Shown in pieces: positions 7,736-39,648 of a stretch of 39,648 bases of DNA. Positions within the stretch are counted from its first letter, which is position 1. Each line of letters begins with the position of its first letter. The DNA is from a virus. A model generated the notes under the pieces. The model saw only the letters and a list, made by a program, of their open reading frames with translations. It did no database searches and was not told where the DNA came from. The stretch spans positions 1 through 39,648 of the IMG/VR virus record IMGVR_UViG_3300045988_050273; one strand, 5' to 3'. Made by a program: the position numbers and the translations under genes.

Positions 7736-7736
7736 A

Positions 7737-12335: not shown

Positions 12336-12508
12336 TTAAAGTAGTTTTCAACATGGCCAGCGGTCAGAAATTAACCGGAGATATGGACGAAGAACAGTAT
12401 CAAGCACTTATTCAGGCAGCCATAGAGGAACCCGTTATCGAGATCAGGGGCGACGGTAAGCGTGTCGTCATATTTACAAAATACATCGAAAGCATTACAA
12501 GGGGGTAG
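12332..12508 (+). CDS. Small protein (58 aa)
   Basis: Track ORF 12200 trimmed to ATG 12332, which follows the second GGAGGTAGTGAAATGA junction. The translation starts MIKVVFNMASGQKLTGDMDEEQYQAL... Confidence 0.65.
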   Translation: MIKVVFNMASGQKLTGDMDEEQYQALIQAAIEEPVIEIRGDGKRVVIFTKYIESITRG

Positions 12509-12512
12509 TGAA

Positions 12513-13013
12513 ATGAGCACACTGTTAAGTCACGCAAAAGAAGAATTGAAACGATACAACAATGGCCTATACGGCGACATGTTAAGCGAAGCAATTTACG
12601 AGATCGTCGAGGTATTCGCAAAGCAAGGTCATAGCGGTTTTAGCGCAGCAATGGCAGCCGAAGCAGCTGGGCGCTTGATGAACTTTAAACCTTTGACACC
12701 ATTGACCGGGGAAGACGACGAGTGGAAAGAGCTGGACTACCTAGGCGGCCATGCACGCTGGCAGAACAAGCGCCACACTTCACTATTCAAGGACGAAGAT
12801 GGTTTTTGCTACGACCTTGACGCCGTAACCTTTGAAGACGTAGACGAGCCTGGTAACTTCTTCACTAATGGCGACCTGGTACGTCGTTACCACCGAGGTA
12901 TTCCGCGGATCAAGTTCCCTTACATGCCAGCAGATAAGCCCGTAGTGTGCAAGATCAAAGAACTTAACGACGGTACGCGTGTGATCGTCGACTATGGGGC
13001 TGGGCGCAGATGA
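12513..13013 (+). CDS. Hypothetical protein (166 aa)
   Basis: Track ORF 12462 trimmed to ATG 12513, which follows the third junction copy GGGGGTAGTGAAATG. Confidence 0.75.
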   Translation: MSTLLSHAKEELKRYNNGLYGDMLSEAIYEIVEVFAKQGHSGFSAAMAAEAAGRLMNFKPLTPLTGEDDEWKELDYLGGHARWQNKRHTSLFKDEDGFCYDLDAVTFEDVDEPGNFFTNGDLVRRYHRGIPRIKFPYMPADKPVVCKIKELNDGTRVIVDYGAGRR

Positions 13014-14686
13014 AGTTCGTCCCACACGACTACCAACAGACCGCGCTTGACTTCATGATGAGCCACAACCGGGCGCTCATTATCCAAGACATGGGACTAG
13101 GTAAAACTGTGACCAGCCTTACCGCTATCAAGAAATCAATGTTTCCCACAGACGGCAGTGAGCCACGCTATCGTCGTCCGCTTATCATTGCGCCTAAGAT
13201 CGTATCGGAAAACACCTGGGCTAACGAGTTAGCGAAATGGGATCACTTGAAGACGCTCAAATATATTGAACTGGACGCCACACGGGTCGACCAGCGGATA
13301 GAACAATTTGACAGAATCGACGACGGCGTCCTAACGATCATGAGCGAAAGCAAAATACAGTGGCTTATTGACACGCTTAACGACGTGACCCAAGACCGTG
13401 AATGGCCTTGGGATTGCGTCTATATCGACGAGATCAGTATTTTCAAAAGCCCAAAGAGCCAGCGCTTTAAGAACCTTAAGAAGAAGCTGCAGAACCGTTG
13501 CGACTACGTCTATGGTTTAACTGGTACGCCAGCGCCGAATGACCTGGCCGACCTTTGGGCGATCATGCTACTAATTGACCGCGGCGCCAGACTAGGTGAT
13601 ACCCGTAAGTATTTCAACAAGACTTACTGCAAAGGGATCACGGTGAAAGTCAACGGTGGGGACCAGGAGATCACGAACTACAAAGTGGCCGACGAAGCCT
13701 ACGACCGGGTACTAGAAGATATCAGCGACATATGTATAGCCATGAGCGCCAAGGATCACCTGGACGATAACCCAGAGATCGAACTACACAAGCACGAAGT
13801 CAAGCTGCCTAAGAAGACGCTGGACTTGATCGACGAGCTGACGGTTAAGCGTGTCCTGGAACTCGCTGGACGAGAAAGCAGCCACAAGGTCGAACGTATT
13901 GAGCGACGGATCGAAAAGTACCAGGCAAGCGGATCGTTAGCAAAGCAGCGACGTATTCCTAAGCTTAGACAAAAGGCCCAACGGATCAAAGACGCCGAGG
14001 GCAGCGGTGATATTGTGTTACGTGCCAGCCATGTATTTAGTCTGATATCCATAGGCCGCCAGATTGCCGGGGGCGCCGTTTACGAGGGCGTACCGGAAAC
14101 CGACGACGAGGACCTTATCGCAGAGTTTTACAAGAACCGACGTGTCATAGAAGACAATGATACAAAGCTTGCTAAAGTCCAGGAGATCGTCGACGGGGTC
14201 AATGACAACGTACTTATCTTTTATCACTATAAACACGAAGCAGATCGGATCAAGTCGCTTTACCCAGACGCTAAGGTCCTTAACACAGCGAACGCTAGAC
14301 GAGTGATACCAGAGTGGAACCGAAAGAGGATACGCGTGTTACTGGCGAACCCGGCGAGTACAAAGTTTGGCTTGAATATGCAAGACGGCGGCCACACGAT
14401 CATATGGTACGGCTTAGACTATTCATTTGAGAAGTACGTCCAATCGAACGCCAGACTGGCACGTCAAGGACAGAAGAACAAGGTCGACGTCCACTTGCTA
14501 CTCGCAGCCGACACGATCGACAGAGATATCGAAGCGGCCATAGTTTCTAAGTCGTCGATAAACGATTTTGTATACGATAGCCTAAGCGCCAGCAAAGAAG
14601 CACGGGCAGAAGTCCAGCGCGCAGCTACGGATCGGATCGGCAAGGCAACCCAGCGTGCTACGGGTCGTCGTGTTATCGTGCAATAA
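13010..14686 (+). CDS. SNF2/DEAD-like superfamily 2 helicase
   Basis: Motif I is IIQDMGLGKTVTSL, motif II is VYIDEISIFK, motif III is GLTGTPAPN, and motif VI is QSNARLARQGQ. Confidence 0.9.
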   Translation: MKFVPHDYQQTALDFMMSHNRALIIQDMGLGKTVTSLTAIKKSMFPTDGSEPRYRRPLIIAPKIVSENTWANELAKWDHLKTLKYIELDATRVDQRIEQFDRIDDGVLTIMSESKIQWLIDTLNDVTQDREWPWDCVYIDEISIFKSPKSQRFKNLKKKLQNRCDYVYGLTGTPAPNDLADLWAIMLLIDRGARLGDTRKYFNKTYCKGITVKVNGGDQEITNYKVADEAYDRVLEDISDICIAMSAKDHLDDNPEIELHKHEVKLPKKTLDLIDELTVKRVLELAGRESSHKVERIERRIEKYQASGSLAKQRRIPKLRQKAQRIKDAEGSGDIVLRASHVFSLISIGRQIAGGAVYEGVPETDDEDLIAEFYKNRRVIEDNDTKLAKVQEIVDGVNDNVLIFYHYKHEADRIKSLYPDAKVLNTANARRVIPEWNRKRIRVLLANPASTKFGLNMQDGGHTIIWYGLDYSFEKYVQSNARLARQGQKNKVDVHLLLAADTIDRDIEAAIVSKSSINDFVYDSLSASKEARAEVQRAATDRIGKATQRATGRRVIVQ

Positions 14687-14711
14687 CCCAGAAAGTCAGT
14701 AATGGTCAAGA

Positions 14712-14972
14712 AAGCTAGTAACCTACCTAGTATACCACCTAGTACACCGCAAAACGTTATCGTACCAGTGCTTTTAACTAGGTACTACTAGGTCATACTA
14801 GCTTTATATAACTTTTAAATTAGGGGTATAGTATGCTATTAGGCATAACAGTATATTAGAATTACAGAATAGTTTAAAAAACCTCGTAATACCTAGTAAC
14901 CTCGTAACCAGCCCGGTATGACAACGTTTCGGCGGTATACGAGCCTGAAACGACCTCGTAACCTCGTATACC
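14712..14972 (+). repeat. Structured ~260-bp non-coding element, copy A (second copy at 24958..25216)
   Basis: It aligns block by block with 24958..25216: AAGCTAGTA, TACCACCTAGTACACCG, ACTAGGT..TACTAGGTCATACTAGCTTTATATAA, TATAGT, TATATTAG, AATAGTTTAAAA, TACCTAGTAACCTCGTAAC, GGTATACGAGCC, GACCTCGTA.CCTCGTA.ACC. It contains at least 8 copies of CCT(A/C)GTA or its complement. Confidence 0.9.
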
Positions 14973-14977
14973 TTTTT
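14934..14977 (+). terminator. Perfect 10-bp hairpin plus T5 at the 3' end of repeat copy A
   Basis: GGTATACGAG (14934..14943) pairs with CTCGTATACC (14963..14972), followed by TTTTT (14973..14977). The homologous hairpin in copy B (25178..25216) has no T-run. Confidence 0.55.
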
Positions 14978-15090
14978 AGCGTAATGTTCGTGTTTTGCCG
15001 TGTTTGCCGTGTTAAAAAAATTAATGTTCGTGTTACCCGGGTTACAACACGGCAAGTAACGCTAAAAACGCGCGTCGACCCGGGTTAAGA
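14978..15090. repeat. Repeat-dense non-coding segment upstream of the packaging genes (candidate pac/cos or origin-like region)
   Basis: Direct repeats: TAATGTTCGTGTT x2 (14982..14994, 15022..15034), tandem TTGCCGTGT x2 (14995..15012), and ACCCGGGTTA x2 (15035..15044, 15078..15087). Inverted partner ACACGGCAA lies at 15047..15055. Outer stem is TAGCGT/ACGCTA. Confidence 0.6.
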
Positions 15091-15108
15091 TCAAGGAGGA
15101 CAAAGTCA

Positions 15109-15375
15109 GTGGCATTCAGTGAACAATTTGTTTTATCAGACGAGTATATCAACGGGCTACGCGTCCGTGTTACCGTGCAAGACACGGACACCGACACGCT
15201 TAGTTTTGTGTTTGACGGCGGCGAGTTTAATATCAAGCGCGTCGTAATTACGGATCAGTGGGTCAAAATTGAAACAGTTGACCGCGGTACCTATCGGTAC
15301 GCGACCGACAGCGTCCGGGAACTATGGACCCACGACATTATAGAAGTAGAGGAGATCGAAAACAATGAGAATTAA
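15109..15375 (+). CDS. Hypothetical protein (88 aa)
   Basis: GTG 15109 lies 8 nt after AAGGAGGA (15093..15100). It is the first ORF after the long gap. Confidence 0.7.
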   Translation: MAFSEQFVLSDEYINGLRVRVTVQDTDTDTLSFVFDGGEFNIKRVVITDQWVKIETVDRGTYRYATDSVRELWTHDIIEVEEIENNEN

Positions 15376-15655
15376 TATCAACGCAGATCATGAACCGGCA
15401 GCGCCAGCAACCAGAGATCAGAAGATCGAAAAGATTTTCATGGTACGAAAAGGCATAATAGCGTATAATGTTAGACACCTAAGATATAGCTATCGTATGA
15501 GCCGTGACGACGTTGCGGCAAGGTGTGGGTTATCGGCCCACTCAATCGTCCAGGCAGAGCGTGAGGACGTCGACGTTAAGCTTACGACGCTGATTAGGAT
15601 AGCCGAGGGTTTTGGTATTACATTAGAGAAATTAATAGGGGGACGGATAAAATGA
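15365..15655 (+). CDS. XRE-family helix-turn-helix transcriptional regulator
   Basis: LRYSYRMSRDDVAARCGLSAHSIVQAEREDVDVKLTTLIRIAEGFGITLEKLI is a canonical HTH_3/XRE pattern. Confidence 0.8.
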   Translation: MRININADHEPAAPATRDQKIEKIFMVRKGIIAYNVRHLRYSYRMSRDDVAARCGLSAHSIVQAEREDVDVKLTTLIRIAEGFGITLEKLIGGRIK

Positions 15656-15852
15656 ACGACAACGATTTAAGACGCCTAGCTGCCTTGATTGCAAAGCCAG
15701 TCAAGGAACAAGGTGCAACGCCAGCGAACGCGGCCTATATTGTACGGCCAGCCATGACTAAGTTCGACGTAGCATTCCGAGCGATCGGAATTGCCATGAC
15801 ACCACAAGAGAAAGAACGGGTCGTCGAACTCGTAATTAATAAGCTGGGCTAG
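15652..15852 (+). CDS. Hypothetical protein (66 aa)
   Basis: ATG 15652 is coupled to the upstream gene by an ATGA overlap. Confidence 0.7.
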   Translation: MNDNDLRRLAALIAKPVKEQGATPANAAYIVRPAMTKFDVAFRAIGIAMTPQEKERVVELVINKLG

Positions 15853-15910
15853 CGCCTGGCTTTTTTTGTGGTATTATAGAGCCATACAGAAACGAAAGGA
15901 GAACAGGCTC

Positions 15911-19521: not shown

Positions 19522-20650
19522 ATTAGACTTTTATGGCGCCAAGGTACAAGAGTTATACCAGTACCTTGAAGCGTCACTGTTTGAAATAATCTGCCGCAAT
19601 CTACGACGGCAGCTGGAAAAGCTAGGACCCGATAGCGAGTTATCCATACCAGCGTGGCAGATCGACGCGCTGGCAGATATCGGTCAGTTAAACGAGGACG
19701 CAATCGCTAAGATTGCCGAGGTATCCGGACTAACGCCGGACGTCGTACGCCAGGCGGTCTACAGCGTCGGGTATGACACGATCAAAGAGGTCGACGACCG
19801 ACTAACCTACCGAGAGCGTCCACCAATACCAGCGGCCCTACAGCAGCGCCTAGACGCCTTAGTAAACCAGGCAGTCCTTAACCTTGATAACTTGATTAAT
19901 CAAACGCTGCTAACGTCTAACGGCGTCGTCGGGGTTTACCAGGATATCATAAGCCGCGCTGCTGCCGAAGCGTCAATAGGTTTAACCACGTTAGACCAGG
20001 CGGTCAGTCGGACCGTAAACGAATGGCTAGAAAAAGGCATTCAGTCGGGCTTTGTCGATAAGGGCGGCCGTACGTGGTCGATTGAGAACTACGCCAAGAC
20101 GGCCATTAATTCAACGATCAACAACGCGTACCGGCAAGGGACCCAGGACCGTATGGCCGACTATGGGCTTTATACCATATTAATCGGCTCACACCCACAA
20201 GCCCGGCCAGCGTGTTCGTTGATCCAGGGCCACGTTGTCGACCTAAGACCTATGGCAGCACTGCCACCTGGCTGGAAGTACAAGTCAATCTATGACCCGG
20301 TGTGGAACGCTCACTACAAGGAACCAGGGGGCCACGCTGGCGTTAACTGCCACCACCCACACCTTGTTTTCGATCCGGAATACATGACCAATAACATGAC
20401 CCAATACAACCCGGAAGAAGCCCGGAGAGCCGACGAGATCGAAGCCGGACGCAAGGCCATTGCTAACCGTATCCGGAAGTCCAAAAAGAAACTAATGGCC
20501 TACGAAGCGCTGGGCGATCCAGCAAAAACGGGCTATTATAAGAAATTGCTTAACAAACAGCGTAATGCTATGGTACAATACGTTAAGGACAACGATTTAA
20601 AACGTGAGTACTCACTAGAACGGGTAATCACGCCAGAATCAGACGTCTAA
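19514..20650 (+). CDS. Minor head / head morphogenesis protein (SPP1 gp7 / Mu F-like)
   Basis: It follows the portal gene, as in SPP1-like head modules. The track start GTG 19505 overlaps the SD AGGGAG (19500..19505). GTG 19514, the parS centre, is spaced 8 nt from the SD. Confidence 0.75.
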   Translation: MEQLDFYGAKVQELYQYLEASLFEIICRNLRRQLEKLGPDSELSIPAWQIDALADIGQLNEDAIAKIAEVSGLTPDVVRQAVYSVGYDTIKEVDDRLTYRERPPIPAALQQRLDALVNQAVLNLDNLINQTLLTSNGVVGVYQDIISRAAAEASIGLTTLDQAVSRTVNEWLEKGIQSGFVDKGGRTWSIENYAKTAINSTINNAYRQGTQDRMADYGLYTILIGSHPQARPACSLIQGHVVDLRPMAALPPGWKYKSIYDPVWNAHYKEPGGHAGVNCHHPHLVFDPEYMTNNMTQYNPEEARRADEIEAGRKAIANRIRKSKKKLMAYEALGDPAKTGYYKKLLNKQRNAMVQYVKDNDLKREYSLERVITPESDV

Positions 20651-22565: not shown

Positions 22566-22603
22566 TTAAGGGCTGGGGCTTAGGTCCTAGCCCTTAATTT
22601 TTT
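22566..22603 (+). terminator. Intrinsic terminator after the capsid/Big_2 genes
   Basis: TTAAGGGCTGGGG (22566..22578) pairs with CCTAGCCCTTAA (22586..22597), followed by TTTTTT. Confidence 0.8.
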
Positions 22604-24097: not shown

Positions 24098-24115
24098 TTT
24101 AGGAGAGTGAAAAAC

Positions 24116-24910
24116 GTGAAAGACATCAAACTTTTTTCTATGAACTTGCAGCGCTTTGCACGTGCTAAGAACGCTTTGCGTGGTCACTTTATCGCAGAGT
24201 ATACGCCGGGCGAAGACATGCCAGACGTAGCAGACGGTACGAAGTGGCTAGAGCTTGCAAAATGGATCAGCAACATTGACGACGATACAGACGAAGAAAC
24301 TGACGACACCGGTTTCTATGACGGCGACGGTACACCAGAAACGACAGTCGTATCCGTAGCGATCGGCTATTCAGTCGAGGGGTTCTATGATAGCCAAGAC
24401 CCAGCGCAGCAACTCATTAAGAGCAAAAAGCGCAAAGTCGGCGACGGCCGTAAAGTCTGGCATATGGTAGTGGACGCAGATCAAGTCAATATGTGGATCG
24501 GTCGCGCTACAGTAACCGATATCGTAGCCGGTGGCGGCGACGCTACAGAATTTGAAGCATTTAGCTGCAGTATTCGCTTTGATAGCATTCCAAGCGAACT
24601 AGCGGCCGCTGGGGTAGGCGTACCGGCTAACATTAACGGCAGCACGGACGTAGTACCTACAGCCGTTACCATTTCTGGGGCAGCACCTACAATCAAAGTA
24701 GGGGCTACAGTAGAGTTAGGCACACGCTTAGGCTTTACACCGACTACAGCTACGGTACGTACCGGGTCATGGGCTACCACTGATAAAACAGTGGCTACTG
24801 TGAACCAGGCCGGACTTGTAACTGGCTTGAAAGTCGGAACAGCGACGATCGTATTCGTAACAACGAACGGCCTAGTGGCCCAAGTTGTCGTAACCGTCGA
24901 AGCAGCATAA
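24116..24910 (+). CDS. Major tail protein with L27-like N-terminal leader and C-terminal Big_2 domain
   Basis: It lies upstream of the chaperone and tape-measure genes. The start region GGAGAGTGAAAAACGTGAAA matches the capsid start region at 18 of 20 positions, which places the start at GTG 24116 (track start 24107). The leader is MKDIKLFSMNLQRF/ARAK. The C-terminal roughly 90 aa fit the Big_2 pattern. Confidence 0.8.
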   Translation: MKDIKLFSMNLQRFARAKNALRGHFIAEYTPGEDMPDVADGTKWLELAKWISNIDDDTDEETDDTGFYDGDGTPETTVVSVAIGYSVEGFYDSQDPAQQLIKSKKRKVGDGRKVWHMVVDADQVNMWIGRATVTDIVAGGGDATEFEAFSCSIRFDSIPSELAAAGVGVPANINGSTDVVPTAVTISGAAPTIKVGATVELGTRLGFTPTTATVRTGSWATTDKTVATVNQAGLVTGLKVGTATIVFVTTNGLVAQVVVTVEAA

Positions 24911-24920
24911 AAAACGAATT

Positions 24921-24955
24921 AACGGGCTGGGGCTTTGGCCCTGGTCCGTTTTTTG
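24921..24955 (+). terminator. Intrinsic terminator after the major tail gene
   Basis: AACGGGCTGGGGC (24921..24933) pairs with GCCCTGGTCCGTT (24938..24950) using G-U pairs, followed by a T-run (24949..24954). Confidence 0.75.
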
Positions 24956-24957
24956 TA

Positions 24958-25216
24958 AAGCTAGTATGCCGGCTCGTCTACCACCTAGTACACCGTGAAA
25001 CGTTGACAGACCGGGCTTGTTACTAGGTGTTACTAGGTCATACTAGCTTTATATAAGATTTAATTTAGGTATAGTGGTCCTAGGGGTACCCTACACTATA
25101 TTAGTATTGTATAATAGTTTAAAAGCGCTCGTAGTACCTAGTAACCTCGTAACTAGACCGGTACGACAGCCTTTTGAGGTATACGAGCCAAAAATGGACC
25201 TCGTACCTCGTACACC
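24958..25216 (+). repeat. Structured ~260-bp non-coding element, copy B
   Basis: It is homologous to 14712..14972. It contains TACTAGG x2 plus TACTAGCTT (25021..25049), TTTATA/TATAGT (25048..25075), an extended -10 TGTATAAT (25108..25115), a CCT(A/C)GTA array (25127..25212) and a hairpin (25178..25216) that abuts the SD of the next gene. Confidence 0.9.
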
Positions 25217-25233
25217 ATAAGGAGGAATTTAAC

Positions 25234-25746
25234 ATGAGTAACCGTAAAAACCGTAGAAAATTTAACACAGTACAAGGCAACCAAAAACCAAGAACGACTG
25301 ACCTAGGGCTTGAAGATATCAAGATCGAACGATCCGGCTTTGATATCAGTATCGGCGGAGTTATGTTTTTCTTTGACACCAGCGAGGGCCATATCCGCGA
25401 ATACATGGAACTACAAGAAGACCCAGACGCGTTCGTACAAAAGGTACTAGACAAGTCACAAAGCACGCAGTTCGACCCGGAAAACCTAGACCTTGAAACG
25501 TTCGATACTGTTATCGACGATCAAAAAGAAGCGCTAAAAATTGCGATCGACACGATCCTAGGCGCTGGATCATTCGATCGACTATACAGCAAGTGGCCAG
25601 ACGTTTTGGCAATTTCTAAGATCATGACGACCGTAACTGAAACAGCGAACCGAGGGCTAGAAGCATGGTCTGCTAAACAACAGAAAGAAGCAGACAAAAT
25701 GGCAGCCGAAGCCTTGATAGCTAAGAAGAAAAACCGGGGCGAGTAG
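25234..25746 (+). CDS. Tail assembly chaperone (putative)
   Basis: Track ORF 25174 trimmed to ATG 25234 (AAGGAGG 25219..25225). It lies between the major tail and tape-measure genes. Confidence 0.6.
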   Translation: MSNRKNRRKFNTVQGNQKPRTTDLGLEDIKIERSGFDISIGGVMFFFDTSEGHIREYMELQEDPDAFVQKVLDKSQSTQFDPENLDLETFDTVIDDQKEALKIAIDTILGAGSFDRLYSKWPDVLAISKIMTTVTETANRGLEAWSAKQQKEADKMAAEALIAKKKNRGE

Positions 25747-25749: not shown

Positions 25750-26370
25750 ATGGCATTTTCTATCTATAAGAAATGCAGCAGCTACGTTCACTACCAAGGC
25801 GAAGAAATACGGATCGATATGGCGTTCGATAACGTCCTATCGGTCCGGGACATTTTGGCCGACACTTCCTGGACTGAGCGGCAGCAGATAACTATGGCAT
25901 TCGCGTACCTGGTGGCCGACGAAAAACTGGCAACGGCCGAACTATCATACGAGTACAAGCAAGGGCTTGTCGACGTAGTGGTTAAGGACTTGATCGGTGA
26001 GGAGGTCAACGAGAAAGTCATAGAGTACGACCGAGCCGGTAACCCAATGCCTGGCCAGTTGTCGGACCTGGAAGACGATAGCGACGCGATCCAGCAAGGG
26101 TCGTATAGTATTGACCTGGACGCGACCTATATTTATACGGGTTTCAGACAGGCCTACGGGATCGACCTACACCAAGAACTGGGCAAGCTACACTGGCAAG
26201 AGTTTCAAGCGCTGCTAAGGGACCTACCAGAAAATACTATGTTCGGCGAGATCGTTAAAATACGCGGTACGGACCTAAGCAAGATCAAGGACCCGGATGA
26301 GCGGAAACGACTAACGTCGCTTAAGAACAAGTACCGGCTGCCTAACACTCAAAATAAACCGAAAGAATAG
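25750..26370 (+). CDS. Gp15-like tail assembly protein
   Basis: EEIRIDMAFDNVLSVRDILAD... and the C-terminal IVKIRGTDLSKIKDPDERKRLTSLKNKYRL resemble the Phage_Gp15 family found just upstream of tape-measure genes. Confidence 0.6.
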   Translation: MAFSIYKKCSSYVHYQGEEIRIDMAFDNVLSVRDILADTSWTERQQITMAFAYLVADEKLATAELSYEYKQGLVDVVVKDLIGEEVNEKVIEYDRAGNPMPGQLSDLEDDSDAIQQGSYSIDLDATYIYTGFRQAYGIDLHQELGKLHWQEFQALLRDLPENTMFGEIVKIRGTDLSKIKDPDERKRLTSLKNKYRLPNTQNKPKE

Positions 26371-26381: not shown

Positions 26382-28688
26382 ATGGCCGCGGACGGAAAAG
26401 TAAGTATCGAGGTAGTACTCGAAGACGGTTCCGTGGCAAAGGGTATCGCCGATTTAACTGACCAATTTGACCGGTTAGGACAAGCGCCACAGAAAGCGAA
26501 CGTCGGCATAGGTTCGCTTATAAAATCTTTTGGGCTTATGAAAATCGCTGGCGCAGCGATCGACGCGATCAAGGGGTCCCTTGACAGCGCGATAAGCCGA
26601 TTTGACACTATGCAGAAGTTCCCTAAAGTTATGAACGCTTTGGGTTTCAGCGCCGAAGATAGTAAGAAGTCGATCGGCAAGTTATCCGACGGGATCGACG
26701 GGTTGCCTACGAAGCTAGACGACGTCGTAGCCAGCACGCAACAAATGACCGCGATCACGGGGGACTTAGATCGATCGACCGATACTGTTATCGGTTTGAA
26801 TAACGCCTTTCTAGCGTCCGGGGCCAGCGCAGACGACGCAGCCCGGGGGACGCAACAGTTTAACCAAATGCTATCGACTGGTACCGTCGACCTAGAAAGC
26901 TGGAAGACGTTACAAGAAACCATGCCGCTAGCTTTGCAAAAGACCGCCGAAGCTATGGGGTATACCGGTAAGTCGGCGCAGCGTGACCTATATGCAGCGC
27001 TACAGTCCGGAGAAGTAACGTTCGAGGAATTTAACGACCAGATTATCAAACTAGGTACCGGTACAGGAATGCTTGCCGGGTTAGCAAAAGAGAATTCTAT
27101 GGGGATCGCGACGTCATTCGGCAACCTACGCAACGCCGTAGCGAAAAACGTCGCTAACATGATAACCAAGCTTGACGAGATCACGCAGAAGCTCACCGGT
27201 AAGACGATCGCGCAAAATATCGACAGCCTTAAGGTATTGATTAATACTGCCATGGGGGCTATTGTTGACAGTATGGACTTGATCGTACCAGCTATCCAGC
27301 GCGTGTCGGCCTGGCTGCAGCCTTTGATTGCGTTTGTCCAGCAGAACGCCGAAGCATTTAGGCTTTTTGGTATCGTACTGGCTGGCGTGGCCGCTGCCTT
27401 TGCGACTTTCTTCACAGTAGTCGCGATCATTAACCAGGTAAAAGCAGCGATCGACGGACTTAAAGCTGGCTTTGATTTACTTAAGGTAACAATGGCCGCC
27501 AACCCGTTCGCTTTGATCGTGACCGCGATTATTGCGTTCGCAGCAGCGATCGTTTACCTATGGAACACGAACGAGGGCTTTAGAAACGCAGTGATAGCCG
27601 CGTGGACCGCGATACAAGCATTCATGCAGCCGATCATATCCGCCATAAGTTCGTTCGTTCAGAGCGTCTTTGGTAGCCTATTGTCATGGTGGCAAGAGAA
27701 CCAGCAGCTTATCTTATCGACGGCTCAAATGGTTTGGGCTACGATCCAGGTAGTATTTTCTACAGCTATGGCCGTGATCCAGGGCGTCGTATCCGTGGCA
27801 CTGACCGCGATACAGGCATGGTGGAACACTTTTGGTAGTGCTATAATGGCACTGACTAAGGTAGCCTGGGCAGCCATTAAGGCAACATTCCAGTCTACGC
27901 TTTCTACGATCCAGGCAGTCGTTAAGCTAGTCATGAACCAGATTCAGACTGTTATCAAGACAGTCATGGGCGTGATCCAGGGCGTGATTAAAGTTATCAC
28001 TGGCGCCATTAAGGGCGATTGGTCCCAGGTATGGAACGGGATCAAACAGATCACAAGCTCAATTTTAAACGGGATCAAAGATACATTTTCAAATGTTCTA
28101 AGCGCGGCAGCGTCAATCGTATCCGGAAAAATCGACGCGATTAAAGGGTTCTTTAAGTCGATCGGCGACATTAACCTAGTTGATATCGGTAAGAATATCA
28201 TTCAAGGGTTGATTAACGGGGTTTCCAGTATGATAGGTGCAGTTGGTAAAGCAATCGGCAACGTAGTTAACACGATCAAAGACAAAGTTACCGGGCTTTT
28301 GGGTATTCACTCGCCGTCTAGGTGGTTCCGTGACGAAATCGGGAAAATGATTCCGCCAGGCCTAGCAATCGGTATCGACCGAGCAAGCGACGTCGCAGTC
28401 GAAGCCGGTAAGGACTTAGGCAATACAGTCAAGCGATCAATTAACGCCGAGGGCATTATCGGAACGCCGACAACTCAAAACACGAGCCAAGCGTCCCGAA
28501 TTATCAACAGAGCCAGCGACGCGCCAGTCGTACAAGGTGAAACGCTAGCCGGGTCCACGTTTGAGATTCCGGTCGTGATCCAAGGTGACGCTGGTGTATG
28601 GGCTAGGGGTACAGCTAAGTACACCTGGGCCGAGATCCAAAAAATGCAAAAACGCGACAGTCGTAAACGGGGGGTACTAATGACATGA
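26382..28688 (+). CDS. Tape measure protein
   Basis: 768 aa with a long helical, Ala/Ile/Val-rich repetitive core and membrane-like segments, in the canonical position. Confidence 0.9.
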   Translation: MAADGKVSIEVVLEDGSVAKGIADLTDQFDRLGQAPQKANVGIGSLIKSFGLMKIAGAAIDAIKGSLDSAISRFDTMQKFPKVMNALGFSAEDSKKSIGKLSDGIDGLPTKLDDVVASTQQMTAITGDLDRSTDTVIGLNNAFLASGASADDAARGTQQFNQMLSTGTVDLESWKTLQETMPLALQKTAEAMGYTGKSAQRDLYAALQSGEVTFEEFNDQIIKLGTGTGMLAGLAKENSMGIATSFGNLRNAVAKNVANMITKLDEITQKLTGKTIAQNIDSLKVLINTAMGAIVDSMDLIVPAIQRVSAWLQPLIAFVQQNAEAFRLFGIVLAGVAAAFATFFTVVAIINQVKAAIDGLKAGFDLLKVTMAANPFALIVTAIIAFAAAIVYLWNTNEGFRNAVIAAWTAIQAFMQPIISAISSFVQSVFGSLLSWWQENQQLILSTAQMVWATIQVVFSTAMAVIQGVVSVALTAIQAWWNTFGSAIMALTKVAWAAIKATFQSTLSTIQAVVKLVMNQIQTVIKTVMGVIQGVIKVITGAIKGDWSQVWNGIKQITSSILNGIKDTFSNVLSAAASIVSGKIDAIKGFFKSIGDINLVDIGKNIIQGLINGVSSMIGAVGKAIGNVVNTIKDKVTGLLGIHSPSRWFRDEIGKMIPPGLAIGIDRASDVAVEAGKDLGNTVKRSINAEGIIGTPTTQNTSQASRIINRASDAPVVQGETLAGSTFEIPVVIQGDAGVWARGTAKYTWAEIQKMQKRDSRKRGVLMT

Positions 28689-30757
28689 TGACAATAACCT
28701 ATGGGGGCGTAGAGATTACGAAATACCTACGACCTTTACGAGAACTGGACCGAAAGATTTTACCAGAAATCGAATACCAGTTAGACAAAGTCGGCAAGTC
28801 GGACGGGTACCTGGTACGCGGCGGAAGTTTTGGCCAGCGTATTATACCAATGCCTTTTAAGATCACAGACAATTTACTGCAGAATCGACGAGAGTTGGCC
28901 CGGGTACTTAGTACCCGGGAACCACTGCAACTAATTTTTAGCGACGAGCCAGACAAATATTGGCTTGCTTTGCCTACGGGCGATATAAGCGTCGCTGAAA
29001 TGGTTTTCCAGGGTAAGGGCCAGATCGATTGGATCGTACCTGACGGGGTAGCCCACGCTGTAACGCCGCGTATTTTTACGAACGTTACGACACCAACGGG
29101 GACCGCTAACCAGGTACTTGATCCAGAATTTCAAAACCGAATGAAATACTACAAGCCTTGGGCTTCATTGCTGCAAGAGGTATACAATACCCACAACGTC
29201 GTCAAAGGTGATTTTACCGACACTAACACGATCGCGGACAAAGGCGAGCCTAGGGTCCTAGGTATGCACGTCGTCCAGCAGCCGCTAAGTTCGGCCAGGA
29301 ATATATCGTCGCTAGCCATTGGGTCCAAAGTTTCGGCCCAGGTCATGGCCAGGATCGATACAGCGGCCACAGGGGACACCACAGGCGCCAAAAGCGTCGC
29401 TTTGGTAGTCCAGGAACTAGAATACGCTGGCGGCCCGGTACTGGCTTACAAGGCCGTATATCCGACGTCGCTAAAAGTCGGCACGTTTCAAGCTTTGACA
29501 ATCACAGGCTACACGATCACACAAGCAAAGACCAAAGCGCTAAACATGCTCATGCTTATCGGTGATACTGCAGCAGTTAGTTTCTCTATGCCGCAGTACA
29601 ATCTAGGGGCAACGCTAGCGCCATTCAGTGTTACAAATAACACGTTGACCGACATGATAGCCGTAACTAACCCAGGGTCGTACCGTTCCTGGCCAATTAT
29701 CCGGGCACTTATGAACGGTGAGAACGGACTAGTGGCAATCGCCAACGAAGACGAGGGGCTTTTGCAGTTCGGGAACCCAGACGATATCGACACCGCGCCA
29801 GGGGTCCGTACCGATAAAGTTATCAGCATACCTATGAGAAACAACGGCAGCAAGTTTGAGTTAAACAGCCCGAAAGCTAAGCCAGACTACCCTAACTTTT
29901 TACTAGACCCGTCAACGCCTAACAAGCCGGGTATCGGGGGCATTGACTGGAAAGCTAACCCGGAAGCGGCAACGCCTATATGGCCCGAAAATAAAGACGC
30001 CGTTTGGGCTGGTCCAACGCTATACACAGATATACCTAGAAATACGGCCAACCGTGCAGACGGGACTTTCTTATGGCGTAACCGGTTCGACTTCCAACCA
30101 ACTAAAGCAACGTCGGGGCGCTTAACCTTTACGCTGCAAAACGAAACAGATGGTTCTGTATTGTCTGCAGTTATCCGGGATAGTACACGAAGTAAAGAAG
30201 AATTGATCGTCGAGTTTTCTTGCTTTGACCGAGTACAGCACAGAGTAAGCCTTGACCGGAAAAAATGGACTGGCCGCTTTTGGGAGGTTTCGATTGAACG
30301 TACCGGAGATATGCAAGTTACTTGGAAGTTTTCACAATTCAAGGCATTTAGCGGCGAGGGTATCGAAGCAGCACGATCCGAAGTTTTCCAGGCTACACTA
30401 CCAGAAATAAGCGGCAAGGAGATCGACGGGCTTTGTTGCTGGTTTCAAAAGTGGGGCGACGACCCAACCAATAAATGGACGACGTTTATGGACTGGACTG
30501 ATACCAAGTTCTACTGGACCAACGAAGAAGTAGCAACAAATATACCCAATCTATTCGACGACGGCGACCTTGTTGAAATTGACACGGCAGCCCGAAAAGT
30601 ATACATTAATGGCATAGAGAATTTTCAAATCCAAGCTATCGGTAATAGGTGGGAACGGTTCGCAGTTGAGCCAGGAACGACTACCATGCTACCAATAGCG
30701 TCGACTTGGGCCAATATGTATGAGTGCCAAGTCGAATTGAGAGGGGCATATCTGTAA
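28685..30757 (+). CDS. Distal tail protein (Dit), enlarged form
   Basis: The N-terminus MMTITYGGVEITKYLRPLRELDRKILPEIE...RIIPMPFKI is typical of siphovirus Dit. At 690 aa it is about twice the size of a minimal Dit. Confidence 0.75.
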   Translation: MMTITYGGVEITKYLRPLRELDRKILPEIEYQLDKVGKSDGYLVRGGSFGQRIIPMPFKITDNLLQNRRELARVLSTREPLQLIFSDEPDKYWLALPTGDISVAEMVFQGKGQIDWIVPDGVAHAVTPRIFTNVTTPTGTANQVLDPEFQNRMKYYKPWASLLQEVYNTHNVVKGDFTDTNTIADKGEPRVLGMHVVQQPLSSARNISSLAIGSKVSAQVMARIDTAATGDTTGAKSVALVVQELEYAGGPVLAYKAVYPTSLKVGTFQALTITGYTITQAKTKALNMLMLIGDTAAVSFSMPQYNLGATLAPFSVTNNTLTDMIAVTNPGSYRSWPIIRALMNGENGLVAIANEDEGLLQFGNPDDIDTAPGVRTDKVISIPMRNNGSKFELNSPKAKPDYPNFLLDPSTPNKPGIGGIDWKANPEAATPIWPENKDAVWAGPTLYTDIPRNTANRADGTFLWRNRFDFQPTKATSGRLTFTLQNETDGSVLSAVIRDSTRSKEELIVEFSCFDRVQHRVSLDRKKWTGRFWEVSIERTGDMQVTWKFSQFKAFSGEGIEAARSEVFQATLPEISGKEIDGLCCWFQKWGDDPTNKWTTFMDWTDTKFYWTNEEVATNIPNLFDDGDLVEIDTAARKVYINGIENFQIQAIGNRWERFAVEPGTTTMLPIASTWANMYECQVELRGAYL

Positions 30758-33700
30758 TGGACTTTTATTTAACAGACCGAAGATTTAACCTTTTAGGCGT
30801 AGTTTCGACGAGTTCCGAAGCTACGCTGCAAATGGTTAACGAAACCGACACGCAAAGCATAGAGAACGCAGCCCGTGAGTTTGAGGGAACTATCTTATTC
30901 CCTACGCGACTATCAACTAAGATTAAGACGCTGGCAGCTTATGGCAATTATCTGCTATACAAGGACGAGCAAGGGAAATCAGTTTTCATGACGATCATGG
31001 AGATCGAACATGACCCGTTAAACGGCACACACTTTATACGTGCCGAAGACGCTGGCATGGACTTATTAAATGGCTACGTCGGACCTTACAAAGCAACCAA
31101 GGCAATGACATTCAAACAATACTTTGACGTTTTCGCCAAAGGTACCGGGTTTACGATCGGGATCAACGAAATCACGGACCTATCGCGTACCCTCGAATGG
31201 GAAAGCGAAGAGCAGACGATCCTTGCCAGAATGTTATCCGTGGCAACGCAGTTCGACAATGCAGAAATAGCATTCAGTTTCACGATAACCGGTACGCAAG
31301 TGGTCCAGCGGCGCCTTGACGTTATGAGAAAACGCGGCGCAGACAATCGGATCATTTTATATGCTAACCGTGACATTAACAACATAGTAACCAAAGGGAA
31401 CATATACGACCTAGCTACAGCGCTAGAAGTGTCGGGCGGTGAGATCGACGGCGTACCAGTTACGCTTAAGGGCTACAGCTACACGGACCCCACGGGTCGT
31501 TTTGAATTGGACCCAGCAACGGGTATCCTTTACGACACGGAAAGCGTGAAAGTTTGGTCGCGTCTTTTGAGCAACGACAACCCGAACCCAGAGAACGGTT
31601 ACATCAAGCGCCTTAAGTCGTATGAAACAACGAACAAAAAGACTTTACTTGATAACGCGATCCGCGAACTAACGAAAGTAAGCCAGCCGATTGTCAACTA
31701 TGAAACCGACATAAGCAAGCTGCCGGATAACGTACTTATCGGCGACACGGTTTACCTATCCGACGAAAATCAAGAGTTATATTTATCGGCCCGAGTTTTA
31801 ACCCTGGACCGTTGCTACAGCGAAGAAACCTACACGGCAACCCTGGGGGACTATTTGATCGTAGAGGACGGCCTGGCCTTGTCACTCAAAGAGATCGCAG
31901 CGCAGCTTAAAGCCGAAACGACGTACTTATGGATACGGTACGCCGACGACGATCAAGGTAGCGGCATGAGCCCAAGCCCTAGCGGCAAAGAGTATATAGC
32001 AATCAAAAGCGTCGTAGGCGTACCAACTGCCAGCGACGACCCGGACGACTATATCGGCCTTTGGCAGAAGTTTGTAGGGGATCAAGGTATACCAGGGCCG
32101 CAAGGTCCGAACGGGGCTACGACGTACACCTGGTTAAAATACGCCGACGACGATCAAGGTAGCGGCATGAGCGACGACCCAGCTGGCAAAATGTATATAG
32201 GGCTAGCAACCAACAAAACGACGCCGACCGAAAGCACGAACCCGGCAGACTATAAGTGGCAGCTAGTCAAAGGTGAGGACGGCCAAGATGCACACGTTTA
32301 CCAGGCCTACGCCTTTGACGAAACCGGTACGGATCGCTTTACGATACCTTACCCGAACGAAAATATAATCTTAAATTCTCAATTTAAGAATGGTACGACG
32401 GGTTGGCTAACTGGTAATGCAAGTGTGGAAGTTGACACCACTAATAAGCTTGATGGGCTTAACTCTATGAAAGTAGGCCTTAACGCTGATAGTACCGCCG
32501 GCACAGCGTCAAGGGCATTTTACAGATATAATGGCGAGACCGGTCTAGTACCGTCCAGCGGATCGTTATGGCTAAAAGCCGATAAGGACGTAAAAATAGG
32601 TATAAGAACCGATGGCGGTACTAAAACAGGTAGCTACAATGTAACTACAGAGTGGCAGCGGTTCGAGATACCTAAAGACGGCTACATGGTATTGATATGG
32701 GCATTTAGCTCATGTGTATTATGGGTAGCAAAGCCCAAAGTAGAGAATAGTTCGGTAACAACCATTTACACACCAGCGCCAAGCGAAGACTTTGCCAACG
32801 CTTACCCTACTTTCATGGGGACCTATGCAACGTTCGACGACACGCAAAGCACAGACCCAGCAGACTACACTTGGGCCAGAATGCTAGGTAATTCCGGGGT
32901 CGGTATCAAGACGACGGTCGTAGAATATGCCGTCGGTACCAGCGCCACTACAGCGCCGACTAGCGGCTGGCAAGCGACACCGCCAGCAGTTGGGACTAAC
33001 CAGTACCTATGGACCCGGATCACTTTGACCTATGACGACGAGAGCGTCGTTACAAGCTATAGCGTGGGCGCCAGAGGGGCGCAAGGTCCACAAGGTCCGA
33101 CAGGTCCAAGCGGTAACGGGATCGACACCAGCGTCGTAACATACGCAGCTGGGACCACAGGGACAACAGCGCCAGCTACAGGGTGGCAAGCAACGCCGCC
33201 AACCGTGGCAGCGAACCAATTCCTTTGGACAAAGATCGTACTTACCTATACCGACGGATCAAGTACCACGTCGTACGCCGTTGGTAAAATGGGGGCACAA
33301 GGTCCACAAGGGGCCAAAGGTGACACCGGACCCCAGGGGCCTACAGGTCCGACGGGTAACGGGATCAGCAGCAGTACGATCAGCTACGCGGCTAGCACGT
33401 CGGGGACAACGGCGCCAAGTACAGGCTGGCAAGGAACACCACCGACAGTTGCGGCTAACTCTTATCTTTGGACCCGTGTGATTATAAATTACACGGACGG
33501 AAGCAGCAGCACGTCGTACAGCGTCGGTAAAATGGGGGCACAAGGCCCACAAGGTAATGCTGGGGCACAAGGTCCACAAGGGCCAACTGGTAACGGGATC
33601 GACACCAGCGTCGTAACATACGCGGCAAGTGCTAGCGGTACGACGGCGCCAAGTACAGGTTGGGCTACCACGCCACCAACCGTGGCTGCAAACCAATTTC

Positions 33701-35253
33701 TTTGGACCAAGGTAGTAATAACTTACACCAACGGGACAAGTACAACCGCGTACAGCGTCGGTAAAATGGGGGCACAAGGTCCACAGGGGGCCAAAGGTGA
33801 CACGGGACCCCAAGGGCCAACAGGTCCGACGGGTAACGGGATAGCAAACAGTACGATCCACTATGCAGCCAGCACGTCGGGGACCACGGCGCCAAGTACA
33901 GGCTGGCAAACTACGCCGCCGACCGTTGCTGCCAATTCGTTCCTATGGACCCGAGTAGTTATTAACTACACCGACGGCACAAGTTCGACGTCGTACAGCG
34001 TCGGTAAAATGGGGGCACAAGGCCCACAAGGTAATGCCGGGGCACAAGGTCCACAAGGGCCAACAGGTAACGGTATCAGCAGCAGCGCCGTCAATTATGC
34101 AGCAAGTGCTAGCGGTACGACGGCACCAACTAGCGGCTGGGCTACAACGCCACCGACCGTGGCAGCTAACCAATTCTTATGGACCCGAGTAATAATCACT
34201 TACACCAATGGGAACACGACAACCGCGTACAGCGTCGGTAAAATGGGGGCACAGGGTCCAAAAGGCGACACCGGGGCACAGGGTCCGAAAGGGCCACAAG
34301 GTCCACAGGGGCCGCAAGGTATCCAGGGCGTAGCCTACTTAAGCCCAACGCAGCCAAGCACGACGCAAAACGGGTCACAGTGGTTTAAAACGGTATCGAC
34401 GACTAACCGGACAGTAACGGACATATATACGTATGTTACCGGGTCTGGTTGGGTCAAGACACCACTGGCAGCTGGTACTTTGGCCGTGACGTCGATCAGT
34501 GCAATAAGCGCCAACCTGGGTGACATAACAGCCGGTACGATTAACGGGGTGTCGATCACAGGGGCCGGGCTTTATTCAGACTTTGACCGGGCCAATGTAA
34601 GCGGTGGGACAGTGTGGACTAAGGGAAAACTGACCATGGCAAACGGTAGGTTTAGAAATGACTTTCAAGAGTATACAAAATCTAGTGGAACAGTAACCCG
34701 GAACGGTTTTTCGGAACTTACCCACGAAGCGCTAACCATGGCCAGTTTTAATGGTACCCAGACGACCACAGTGGACCGATATCTGCAGATTAACCCGTTC
34801 AGGATTAACATGATAGACAGCCAAGGGCGCGGCGGTAACTTGACTTTCCAGGACTTGTACAGCCTAGGCAAGATAGGCATTCCGGCCGGAAGTGGCTGGC
34901 GGCAATATAATACAAGTTCTAGTTCGGGTAACTTCCCAAGTGCTACCAGGGTCGGCCGTGTGGTACAGCTTGCCGGGGCCTTTGCGCCTAACGCAGCGAA
35001 GCCGTCCGGTACCGAGAACGAGGTCATGGGAACACTGCCCGTGGGCTACCGACCAGATTCGGACTGTAACTTTATCTGCCAGGGAACCAGGGCGAACATA
35101 TATTTATTAGTCGTAAAGGCAAATGGGCAACTAATGTTTAACCGTTACCGCGGCGATACTGGATCAAGCAACAACTATAAATTTGACTACAAGGACTGTA
35201 CAGAGGGCGCTTGGATCAACATAGCTTGTACCTTTGCTGCCGCAGACGTATAG
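30757..35253 (+). CDS. Tail-associated / receptor-binding fibre protein (Tal N-terminal domain, collagen-like repeats, repeated beta-rich modules)
   Basis: Track ORF 30724 trimmed to ATG 30757 (TAATG overlap; GAGAGGGG SD). The N-terminus [16 protein letters not shown] is typical of phage minor structural / Tal proteins. G-X-Y runs and six repeated modules span 32887..34329. Confidence 0.85.
32887..34329 (+). repeat. In-frame repeat array inside the fibre gene (six ~62-81 aa modules separated by collagen-like G-X-Y runs)
   Basis: Module starts are at 32887, 33076, 33292, 33535, 33769 and 34012, with a final G-X-Y run at 34246..34329. The block 33292..33768 is near-duplicated at 33769..34245 (477-bp period). 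Confidence 0.9.
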
Positions 35254-37297: not shown

Positions 37298-37326
37298 TTG
37301 ACAAATTATGCCTTTGGGCATATACT
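37298..37326 (+). promoter_or_regulatory. Near-consensus sigma-A promoter P3 with operator palindrome
   Basis: TTGACA (37298..37303), 17-nt spacer, TATACT (37321..37326). TATGCC-TTTG-GGCATA lies at 37307..37322. The upstream context TTTTTCTTGTTGACAAA parallels P1. Confidence 0.8.
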
Positions 37327-39214: not shown

Positions 39215-39451
39215 TTGTATGAATATATTGACTTAGAGCAGTTACGGATCGACGCCGCGGCCAGCGGTTACACGCAGCAGATCATTGCAGAGCGCGCCGG
39301 TATCCACCAGAGCAACGTGTCACGCTTCCTAAACGGTGAGCGCAGTTTATCATTTTTTTCGTACGTGAACCTGGTTAAGGCGATCGACGAAGACCCTAAA
39401 AAATATTTGACAGAAAAAGGCAAAAAAGTCTTTACTTTAGAATTAGAGTAG
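39215..39451 (+). CDS. Small helix-turn-helix DNA-binding protein (78 aa)
   Basis: TQQIIAERAGIHQSNVSRFLNGERS is an XRE/Cro-like HTH. TTG start at 39215 follows GGGGG. It is the last gene of the P3 operon and lies 13 nt upstream of an operator palindrome. Confidence 0.7.
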   Translation: MYEYIDLEQLRIDAAASGYTQQIIAERAGIHQSNVSRFLNGERSLSFFSYVNLVKAIDEDPKKYLTEKGKKVFTLELE

Positions 39452-39452
39452 G

Positions 39453-39481
39453 TTATGATTATTTATGCCAAAGGGCATAAT
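39453..39481 (+). promoter_or_regulatory. Third copy of the operator palindrome with a weaker promoter-like context
   Basis: TATGCC-AAAG-GGCATA lies at 39464..39479. A possible -35 TTATGA (39453..39458), 17-nt spacer and -10 CATAAT (39476..39481) surround it. Confidence 0.45.
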
Positions 39482-39529: not shown

Positions 39530-39648
39530 AAGACGGCAATGTATAAAAAAGGACTTAAGAGTAATAGTTATTGACAGCCGGAACAGACGGCACTAAAGTT
39601 GCATTTGCGAGTGTGAACTAGGCGGAAAACTAGGGAACACAAAAAAAG
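39530..39648. repeat. Terminal direct repeat, right copy (identical to 1..119)
   Basis: See the left copy at 1..119. Confidence 0.95.

Follow-up and report, generated by a model that had tools for sequence, protein, structure and literature searches.

A duplicated iteron element in the genome of a lytic siphophage, with one copy behind the major tail gene, is a candidate pair of SaPI-type replication origins

The sequence analyzed here, referred to as the window, comprises 39,648 nt (IMG/VR record IMGVR_UViG_3300045988_050273, positions 1 to 39,648) and represents the circularly assembled genome of a siphophage of about 39.5 kb, in which all genes are carried on the + strand. In its tail module, the major tail gene (24107-24910, +) is separated from the first tail-chaperone-like gene (25234-25746, +; phrog_1061) by a terminator and, directly behind it, by a non-coding element designated copy B. 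The same element is present a second time as copy A (14710-14975, +), which is preceded by a SNF2 helicase gene (13010-14686, +). Both copies are composed of short directional repeats, hereafter called iterons, on the two sides of an AT-rich core. This study addresses the architecture and conservation of the two copies and their possible function as replication origins of the type known from Staphylococcus aureus pathogenicity islands (SaPIs).

The terminator upstream of copy B (24921-24956, +) consists of a 13-bp stem (24921-24950) with 8 GC pairs and a T-run, and it shields copy B from incoming late transcription. Together with a terminator at 22566-22597, which lies behind the gene for an Ig-like head decoration protein, it is the strongest of the late operon, and the two stems are near-identical (GGGCTGGGGCTT(A/T)GG(T/C)CCT(A/G)G(C/T)CC). 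Homology to copy A starts at 24957/24958. The outer left arm of copy B (24958-24996, +) contains iteron cores at 24961 (AAGCTAGTATG) and 24985 (CACCTAGTACACC), and the motif in the middle of this arm is degenerate (GGCTCGTC); all three are intact in copy A and in L038_B, the B copy of a related phage. Three - iterons follow (25019-25050; cores at 25021, 25031 and 25041), which are phased by exactly 10 bp and abut the AT-rich core, with TACTAGG at 25021-25027 and 25031-25037 and TACTAGCTT at 25041-25049. The core (25048-25126), a candidate DNA-unwinding element, includes TTTATA-N16-TATAGT (25048-25075), the GC palindrome GGTCCTAGGGGTACC and an extended -10 sequence, TGTATAAT, at 25108-25115, i.e. 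119 nt upstream of the ATG at 25234. Beyond the core, three + iterons (25127-25153; cores at 25128, 25138 and 25146) point in the direction opposite to the left-hand set, and their sequence TACCTAGTAACCTCGTAAC is invariant in 11 of 11 copies from the window and its relatives. The distal part (25154-25216) adds iterons at 25151 (-), 25182 (-, within GGTATACGAGCC), 25200 (+) and 25207 (+). CCT(A/C)GTA occurs in the right half at 25137, 25145, 25199 and 25206, and GGTATACGAG (25178-25187) can pair with CTCGTACACC (25207-25216) with one mismatch. The right boundary is formed by the Shine-Dalgarno (SD) sequence AAGGAGG (25219-25225) and the ATG at 25234 (25219-25236, +). A first-pass annotation of this DNA had already recorded the strong terminator, the inverted TACTAGG pair with TACTAGCTT, the TTTATA and TATAGT hexamers, the extended -10, the CCT(A/C)GTA array and the hairpin close to the SD, all of which proved correct; the array looks like a series of protein-binding sites.

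Copy A shows the same order of parts. Three + iterons (14715, 14727, 14739) and three - iterons (14776, 14786, 14796) precede an AT-rich core (14803-14881), which carries the palindrome ATGCTATTAGGCAT at 14833-14846; to the right lie three + iterons (14883, 14893, 14901), followed by iterons at 14938 (-), 14955 (+) and 14963 (+) and by a T5 run. The two copies are in direct orientation, 10,245 bp apart. Alignment of 14711-14972 with 24957-25216 revealed 82% identity over 255 aligned bases, with a local alignment score of 137 as compared to a maximum of 14 in 100 shuffles, which bears out the earlier proposal that copy B is the second copy of one module. The differences between the copies are systematic. 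A-type copies have TACAGAAT at the -10 position, a central ATGCTATTAGGCAT palindrome and a terminal hairpin plus T5 run, whereas B-type copies have TGTATAAT, a central GGTCCTAGGGGTACC and run into the SD. This contrast, which the first-pass annotation had pointed out for the -10 sequence and for the right end, is fixed throughout the copies of related phages, which form an A-type and a B-type orthologous set. In all A copies of the window lineage, a GGUAUACGAG/CUCGUAUACC stem is followed by U5 in the corresponding RNA. Left arms have been exchanged between the sets in two cases, as the arm of L086_A is of the B-type and that of L038_B of the A-type.

Copy A is in addition followed by accessory repeats (14976-15108, +), namely two AATGTTCGTGTT, two TTGCCGTGTT with an inverted AACACGGCAA, and two ACCCGGGTTA. 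They represent a second motif family, which copy B lacks; AACACGAACATT and AACGCG motifs also flank the corresponding site of Enterococcus phage EC99P2 (L087 20351-20850, about 19960-20000). The accessory repeats may be the site of another protein, e.g. the small terminase (pac) or a regulator. The central palindrome of copy A belongs to a pattern, ATGCY-N4-GGCAT, which is found at exactly four sites of the genome (7748-7761, 37308-37321, 39465-39478 and 14833-14846) as compared to 0.03 expected. The promoters 7737-7766 and 37298-37326 contain ATGCC-N4-GGCAT in the spacer or -10 region; the site at 39465-39478 adjoins a weaker promoter-like sequence (39431-39459) just upstream of the promoter at 42-70; and the fourth site is the centre of copy A. 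Probably, ATGCY-N4-GGCAT is the operator of a phage helix-turn-helix regulator, candidates being the 78-aa product of 39215-39451 and the HTH_3 protein encoded just downstream of copy A (15365-15655, +). The HTH_3 protein was also considered as a possible binder of the element; its gene is intact in the relative L086, where gene calling had missed it. The EC99P2 counterpart of the palindrome (ATGCCTTTAGTCAT) sits in three canonical promoters.

For counting, the iteron core was defined as CT[AC]GT[AGT]. Each copy contains 12 instances, which conform to an extended consensus (A/C)C-CT(A/C)GTA-(A/T)AC of 8-10 bp. The common layout reads + + + (12-bp spacing), a step of 36-37 bp, - - - (10-bp phasing), an AT core of ~80 bp, + + + spaced by 10 and 8 bp, and finally a -, +, + group with GGTATACGAG / CTCGTA(T/C)ACC, so that the iteron sets abutting the core face away from each other. 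CCTMGTA is present 21 times in the window, where 9.3 +/- 2.7 sites would be expected (0 of 100 shuffles reached 21), and 15 of the 21 sites fall within copies A and B. An unbiased 7-mer cluster scan of the window genome detected no other non-coding repeat cluster; indeed, the two elements are the only such clusters in each of the genomes of the window phage, EC99P2 and Lactococcus phage 1358. Duplex stability was assessed genome-wide as nearest-neighbour free energy of 60-mers. In the window, the lowest stability belongs to the core of copy A (14805-14864) and the second lowest to that of copy B (25016-25075). In EC99P2, the two cores likewise have the lowest stability of all 60-mers, by a wide margin, and those of 1358 rank first and third.

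Judged by the primase-helicase, the nearest GenBank phage is EC99P2 (75% identity), followed by 1358 (46%). Close relatives from Logan/ENA assemblies, which share 78-99% protein identity with the window phage, all have the element; they retain both copies, and the nucleotide identity of the element is at least as high as that of the flanking genes. EC99P2 likewise has large gaps at both sites; the one behind the SNF2 helicase gene measures 730 nt, and the one that separates the major tail gene from the chaperone genes measures 604 nt. The two EC99P2 copies are 86.5% identical to each other and 69% identical to the window element, with the layout + + + / - - / AT core / + + + and an almost pure AT core of ~95 bp. 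In 1358, an element of ~290 nt is duplicated with 79% identity, one copy being located between the portal and minor-head genes and the other after the endolysin gene. Its building blocks are GTACAC motifs, which surround an AT-rich core in either orientation, and 15 of the 21 GTACAC sites of the 1358 genome are within the two copies. As read from the sequence, a terminator-like hairpin also precedes the element or coincides with its start at the A-site and the B-site of EC99P2 and at both copies of 1358. Each of the three lineages has two copies, no more and no fewer, at a distance of 10-17 kb. More distantly related contigs (L089 and L090), which are 41% identical in the helicase plus its C-terminal domain (CTD), carry GTACACATAG / GGACACATAG arrays directly 3' of the helicase gene, with inverted copies beyond an AT-rich stretch; this iteron motif is, by its sequence, visibly related to CTAGTACAC.

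Searches further afield returned little. A GenBank phage DNA search with copy B and its surrounding 10-kb region yielded nothing, an IMG/VR search with the primase-helicase yielded only phage 1358 itself, and exact-pattern scans of IMG/VR gave no match for some patterns; scattered IMG/VR matches to a loose 15-base pattern were taken as chance. The 17-mer CCTAGTAACCTCGTAAC matched 21 JGI metagenome contigs and 17 genomes, of which 12 are from Paenibacillus. The Paenibacillus matches were likewise put down to chance at one orthologous locus, as the two loci inspected have a single match at a conserved gene end, and none of the 17-mer loci contains a second element motif. Altogether, no copy of the element was found in the other genome, metagenome or viral collections scanned. 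Distant relatives of the tail module have no insertion between the major tail and chaperone genes, the distance being 84 nt in L001 and 19 nt in L003. Contigs of related phages tend to begin or stop within the element (L038-L040, L041, L042, L043, L084). One of them, L041 (ERR2241729 contig, 1-2570), fuses the 3' end of the SNF2 helicase gene, i.e. the left flank of copy A, to the chaperone gene at the right flank of copy B. The junction is most simply explained by an assembly path through the repeat; alternatively, it is a real recombinant with a 10-kb deletion.

A candidate for the protein acting at the iterons is the VapE-type primase-helicase (5059-7629, +; 856 aa; PF05272 at 2.7e-55). It comprises an N-terminal primase, a VapE-like superfamily 3 (SF3) helicase (aa 442-772) and a winged-helix-like C-terminal part (aa 773-856; nt 7375-7626). 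In a sequence search, aa 442-772 matched the SaPI1 Rep1-DNA complex (PDB 7PDS) with an E-value of 4.6e-29. An AlphaFold model of aa 430-856, for which 55 homologues were used, reached a mean pLDDT (predicted local distance difference test score) of 93.9 and predicts that the C-terminal end folds into a winged-helix-like arrangement of strand, two helices and beta-hairpin. The top Foldseek match of the model was again Rep1 (7PDS; E 2e-29, TM (template modelling) score 0.75), covering ~434-454 columns and thereby roughly the full length of both proteins, followed by the SF3 primase-helicases NrS-1, poxvirus D5/E5 and SaPI5 PriRep5. All three phages, i.e. the window phage, EC99P2 and 1358, encode such a Rep1-like primase-helicase, and no DnaB-type helicase or loader was detected among the replication genes of the window. 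The CTD (aa 800-856) is 75% identical to that of EC99P2, which shares the iteron motif, and 19% identical to that of 1358, which has a different motif, whereas the helicase core and the primase of the window protein are still 46% and 56% identical to 1358. Divergence of the CTD tracks the iteron motif, which would fit the CTD as the part that confers specificity.

Based on the arrangement of the motifs around an AT core and on the presence of a Rep1-like initiator-helicase, we propose that copies A and B are a pair of SaPI-type iteron replication origins, analogous to oriL and oriR of phage SPP1, and assign a probability of about 0.6 to this interpretation. It is also favored by the low duplex stability of the cores, by the conservation of the duplicated element in EC99P2, 1358 and close relatives, by the lack of other non-coding repeat clusters in the three genomes, by the parallel divergence of CTD and motif, and by L089 and L090, as their iterons adjoin the helicase gene and thus occupy the canonical SaPI position. 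According to this model, the C-terminal winged helix of the primase-helicase would bind (A/C)C-CT(A/C)GTA-(A/T)AC motifs, which are arrayed with ~10-bp phasing and in opposite orientation on the two sides of the ~80-bp core. Helicase hexamers would load at the iterons, melt the core and prime synthesis with their own primase domain, upon which the PolA (2991-4958, +), the gp2.5/Enc34-like protein that binds single-stranded DNA (SSB; 2177-2998, +) and the PD-(D/E)XK exonuclease (891-2162, +) of the phage would take over. Replication could then start at two origins ~10 kb apart, one of which would close the replication/middle block and the other of which would lie behind the major-tail terminator.

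Several observations weigh against the origin model. The element is located ~7 kb (copy A) and ~17 kb (copy B) downstream of the helicase gene, unlike in SaPIs, and the region 3' of the helicase gene (7630-7815) has a terminator and a canonical promoter and no iteron array. An AT core that is preceded by a terminator and surrounded by repeated protein sites also resembles a regulated promoter; the core of copy A shares its operator palindrome with the promoters 7737-7766 and 37298-37326, and copy B has a near-consensus extended -10 (TGTATAAT). The co-variation of CTD and motif is based on three lineages only, and the model provides no explanation for the retention of two copies. Finally, the extremes of cumulative GC/AT skew lie away from the copies in all three genomes, although a genome with all its genes on one strand would not be expected to give a skew signal.

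The foremost alternative, albeit an unlikely one, is a regulated promoter module. In this case, a phage regulator would bind the motif arrays around an AT-rich promoter, copy A would start the packaging/head unit, and copy B would re-initiate transcription for the chaperone, tape-measure and distal tail genes, which is close to the regulated re-initiation point that the first-pass annotation had seen in copy B. Indeed, the + strand lacks a canonical sigma-A promoter heading the late genes, as only weak or extended -10 candidates are present between 7766 and 37298. TTTATA-N16/18-TATAGT is present in both copies; copy B lies behind a strong terminator with TGTATAAT 119 nt before the ATG; and the -10 of copy A is directly followed by the operator ATGCTATTAGGCAT, whose other copies are at promoters or a promoter-like site, with the HTH_3 gene just downstream. 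However, the EC99P2 B-site has no sigma-70-like site, and at the EC99P2 A-site the promoter (TTGACT-N17-TATAAT) lies beyond the element by ~150 nt. The window lineage has its better -10 in copy B, EC99P2 in copy A (TATAAG, as compared to a TACAGAA-like sequence in B). The 1358 copies do not precede terS, and one of them stands behind the endolysin gene, where the late operon ends, rather than heading it. Moreover, the hairpin and T5 run of copy A would halt its own transcripts, and the equally strong terminator at 22566-22597 has no module behind it; late read-through must therefore occur anyway. TGTATAAT is kept in 6 of 6 B copies of the window lineage, which are at least 88% identical overall. 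Given the elements of EC99P2 and 1358, the shifting -10 and the module-free terminator at 22566, a promoter in copy B is possibly an add-on and not the conserved function; TGTATAAT may serve as an additional promoter into the tail genes, i.e. as a secondary, lineage-specific function. A role of the transcribed right half (CCUCGUA repeats and hairpin) as cis-acting RNA (a leader, attenuator, SD-sequestering or protein-binding structure in B) or as a terminated small RNA of ~100 nt (in A) is very improbable. The whole region folds somewhat better than shuffled sequences (z -3.1 for B, -2.6 for A), the stem followed by U5 is common to all A copies, and in B a CCUC is found 10 nt upstream of GGAGG; SD sequestration by the CCUC-containing repeats had been raised earlier as a speculation. 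Yet the putative 5' leader (25122-25260) folds no better than shuffles (z -0.67), and the SD is engaged in only a 4-bp CCUC/GAGG helix. When the left inverted repeat and the right hairpin were compared among 11 copies, 0 of 41 pairs were changed on both sides, and helices 1-5 and 7 had no double-sided change. Variation instead breaks pairs: in helix 2, three positions are unpaired in 6 of 10 copies, and in helix 7, the right hairpin, one position is unpaired in 6 of 11; the variants responsible are the motif variants CTAGTA and CTCGTA. The A-type hairpin with T-run is absent from EC99P2, and the occurrence of the motif in both orientations fits recognition of duplex DNA. Rfam returned nothing at gathering thresholds for the whole window and, at E <= 1, only sub-threshold miRNA-hairpin noise for the two copies.

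The element could also be a site on DNA for another phage or host protein, e.g. an array with a partition-like or genome-organizing role, an accessory site for packaging, a barrier to replication forks or a hotspot of recombination, with the true origin elsewhere. We regard this as rather improbable. It would accommodate the strict number of two copies 10-17 kb apart in three lineages, the signs of exchange between copies (the left arms of L086_A and L038_B, the L041 junction) and the fact that oriR of SPP1 has been proposed as a fork-stalling site (PMC6316719). On the other hand, none of the proteins scanned resembled ParB, an integrase or Xis, the genome contains no further iteron cluster as candidate origin, and in L089 and L090 related motifs are at the canonical origin position beside the helicase gene. 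Hardly credible is a selfish mobile insertion, i.e. the remnant of a homing element or of a miniature inverted-repeat transposable element (MITE) devoid of phage function, even though the distant tail-module relatives L001 and L003 lack the element and metagenomic contigs often break inside it. Neither terminal inverted repeats nor target duplications are present at 14710/14975 and 24958/25216, where the ends are copies of the direct motif. The same two syntenic sites are filled in two genera, there are invariably two copies, the element is conserved at least as well as the genes next to it, and no copy turned up in the other genome or metagenome collections scanned. The MITE idea was rejected on the absence of terminal inverted repeats and on strict synteny.

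Within the origin model, the two copies need not be equivalent. They might form a differentiated pair, which couples replication to gene expression, rather than redundant origins; we consider this only tentatively, as a doubtful refinement. Copy A would then combine the operator of the early-promoter regulator, placed in the melting core, with the array of the second motif family, and copy B would use its strong extended -10 to drive the tail-assembly genes that directly follow it. When the initiator-helicase loads or a fork passes at B, transcription of the tail genes might be switched on or boosted, i.e. late expression would be coupled to replication. The initiator at the second site might also stall forks and trigger a switch from theta to concatemeric replication, as has been proposed for oriR of SPP1. 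The conservation of two copies in three genera would in this case mean selection on pairing.

The sequence of the window has an exact terminal duplication of 119 bp (1-119 = 39530-39648), which is most simply the k-mer sized overlap of a circular assembly; a physical terminal repeat is unlikely, and the true genome length is therefore probably 39,529 bp. The T7-like replication set (exonuclease, SSB, PolA and primase-helicase) opens the gene order, and a block of small genes precedes the SNF2 helicase gene. Downstream of copy A follow three small genes including that of the HTH_3 protein, terS, terL, the portal gene and head genes. Downstream of copy B, the first chaperone-like gene is followed by a second one (Phage_Gp15-like; 25750-26370, +), the tape measure gene (26382-28688, +), distal tail genes, a collagen-repeat fibre gene and the lysis genes. 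A scan of the window for tRNA and tmRNA genes was negative. Canonical sigma-A promoters were identified at 42-70, 7737-7766 and 37298-37326, and + strand terminators at 15841, 22566, 24921 and 37264. Immediately behind the terminator at 15841-15862 comes TGgTATTAT (15868-15876), which resembles an extended -10, and then the SD of terS at ~15896 and its ATG at 15911; TGgTATTAT is a candidate start for packaging/head transcription independent of copy A.

Some further genes deserve mention. The product of 12462-13013 (183 aa), encoded just upstream of the SNF2 helicase gene, matches PF25185, the Tad3 inhibitor of type I Thoeris (E 8.9e-33), and is likely an anti-defence protein; the gene is kept in the relatives L082, L085 and L086. 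Two proteins of the replication module, the SSB and a 248-aa protein without family match (215-961), have long acidic C-terminal tails encoded by GAAGAC-type repeats. EC99P2 and 1358 encode the same acidic-tailed pair, and its 248-aa member may serve to recruit the polymerase or helicase. Gene 10484-10801 encodes a protein with a match to the cysteine protease family Prp (PF04327, E 1e-15), which processes ribosomal protein L27 in Firmicutes, and this fits a Firmicute, Enterococcus-like host. The tail fibre gene (30724-35253; 1509 aa) contains five tandem copies of ~240 nt (33089-34342) with GXY stretches of the collagen type, and in the EC99P2 record a comparable gene with collagen repeats runs across the ends. 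The product of 7816-8493 was considered as a phage sigma factor and discarded, as it gave a weak PHROG match (E 2.5e-4) and only coiled-coil noise in Pfam.

If the origin model holds, it would assign a function to the two largest non-coding gaps in a group of little-studied lytic siphophages of lactic-acid cocci, comprising the window lineage, EC99P2 and 1358; at these gaps, the public records of EC99P2 and 1358 annotate protein-coding genes only. SaPI Rep/iteron initiation would extend from satellites to autonomous phages with a T7-like polymerase set, and the group would provide a second independent case, after SPP1, of two origin-like sites of which one is wedged into structural genes. The purpose of a second origin, be it redundancy, fork stalling and concatemer switch or coupling to late transcription, would become testable anew. 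In practical terms, a cloned origin would be a candidate tool for phage resistance by origin titration in dairy and enterococcal strains, and the repeat would account for breaks and mis-joins of metagenomic assemblies at these points.

Among known arrangements, copy B resembles the terminator-promoter modules of phage late operons, as it is placed directly behind an intrinsic terminator and has TGTATAAT. Its promoter-like hexamers are not conserved in EC99P2 and 1358, and ordinary promoters have neither a 12-fold array nor a duplicated layout. Another point of reference is the satellite phage P4, whose alpha protein is a fused primase-helicase with a C-terminal DNA-binding domain that recognizes octamer iterons in two clusters, ori and crr, several kb apart. 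P4 crr is a cis-acting enhancer with an internal layout different from that of ori, whereas the copies in the window are near-equal paralogues, each with an AT core. A recent precedent is Enterococcus phage Abitsa (Efquatrovirus), in which a Rep-like helicase was used to locate an iteron/AT-rich origin; a SaPI5-like origin with seven 10-bp iterons around an AT-rich region was inferred (PMC13517437). Abitsa has a single origin near the genome end with GC skew and divergent transcription, while the window has two copies, all genes on one strand and no skew signal.

SPP1 possesses two origins with repeats in direct orientation plus an AT-rich DNA-unwinding element, ~13 kb apart, one of which interrupts late structural genes and, as oriR, is proposed to stall forks (PMC6316719). 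The likeness to the window lies in two similar segments, of which one is at the replication genes (in SPP1) and the other splits a conserved late-gene order and is bracketed by transcription signals. The two systems differ in their proteins, as SPP1 employs the initiator gp38 together with the loader gp39 and the DnaB-type helicase gp40 and not a Rep1-like SF3 enzyme, and in their sites, since oriL is inside gene 38 and oriR splits head genes, not tail genes. SaPI Reps, in turn, are self-loading helicases that act as initiators via a C-terminal winged helix (PMC9371898). Their origins comprise 6-12 short iterons and an AT-rich centre with at least two iterons per side in opposite directions, two Rep hexamers are thought to load, one per side, and in SaPI5 primase and Rep are fused (PMC9371898). 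The window phage likewise has iterons on both sides of an AT-rich centre with opposed flanking sets, a fused primase-helicase as SaPI5, and, according to the structural model, a helicase plus winged-helix part that is a full-length homologue of SaPI1 Rep1. It differs from SaPIs in that its iterons measure 8-10 bp instead of 5-6 bp, in that neither copy directly follows the 3' end of the helicase gene (the gene ends at 7629, and the copies start at 14710 and 24958), in having two copies ~10 kb apart, one within tail genes, and in being a lytic siphophage, equipped with a PolA, an SSB and an exonuclease of its own, and not a satellite island. Point by point except for position, the element fits the description of a SaPI origin. 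New as compared to these systems are the maintenance of two copies in three genera, the location after the major tail gene and the features peculiar to each copy, namely the operator and second repeat family in copy A and the extended -10 and SD in copy B.

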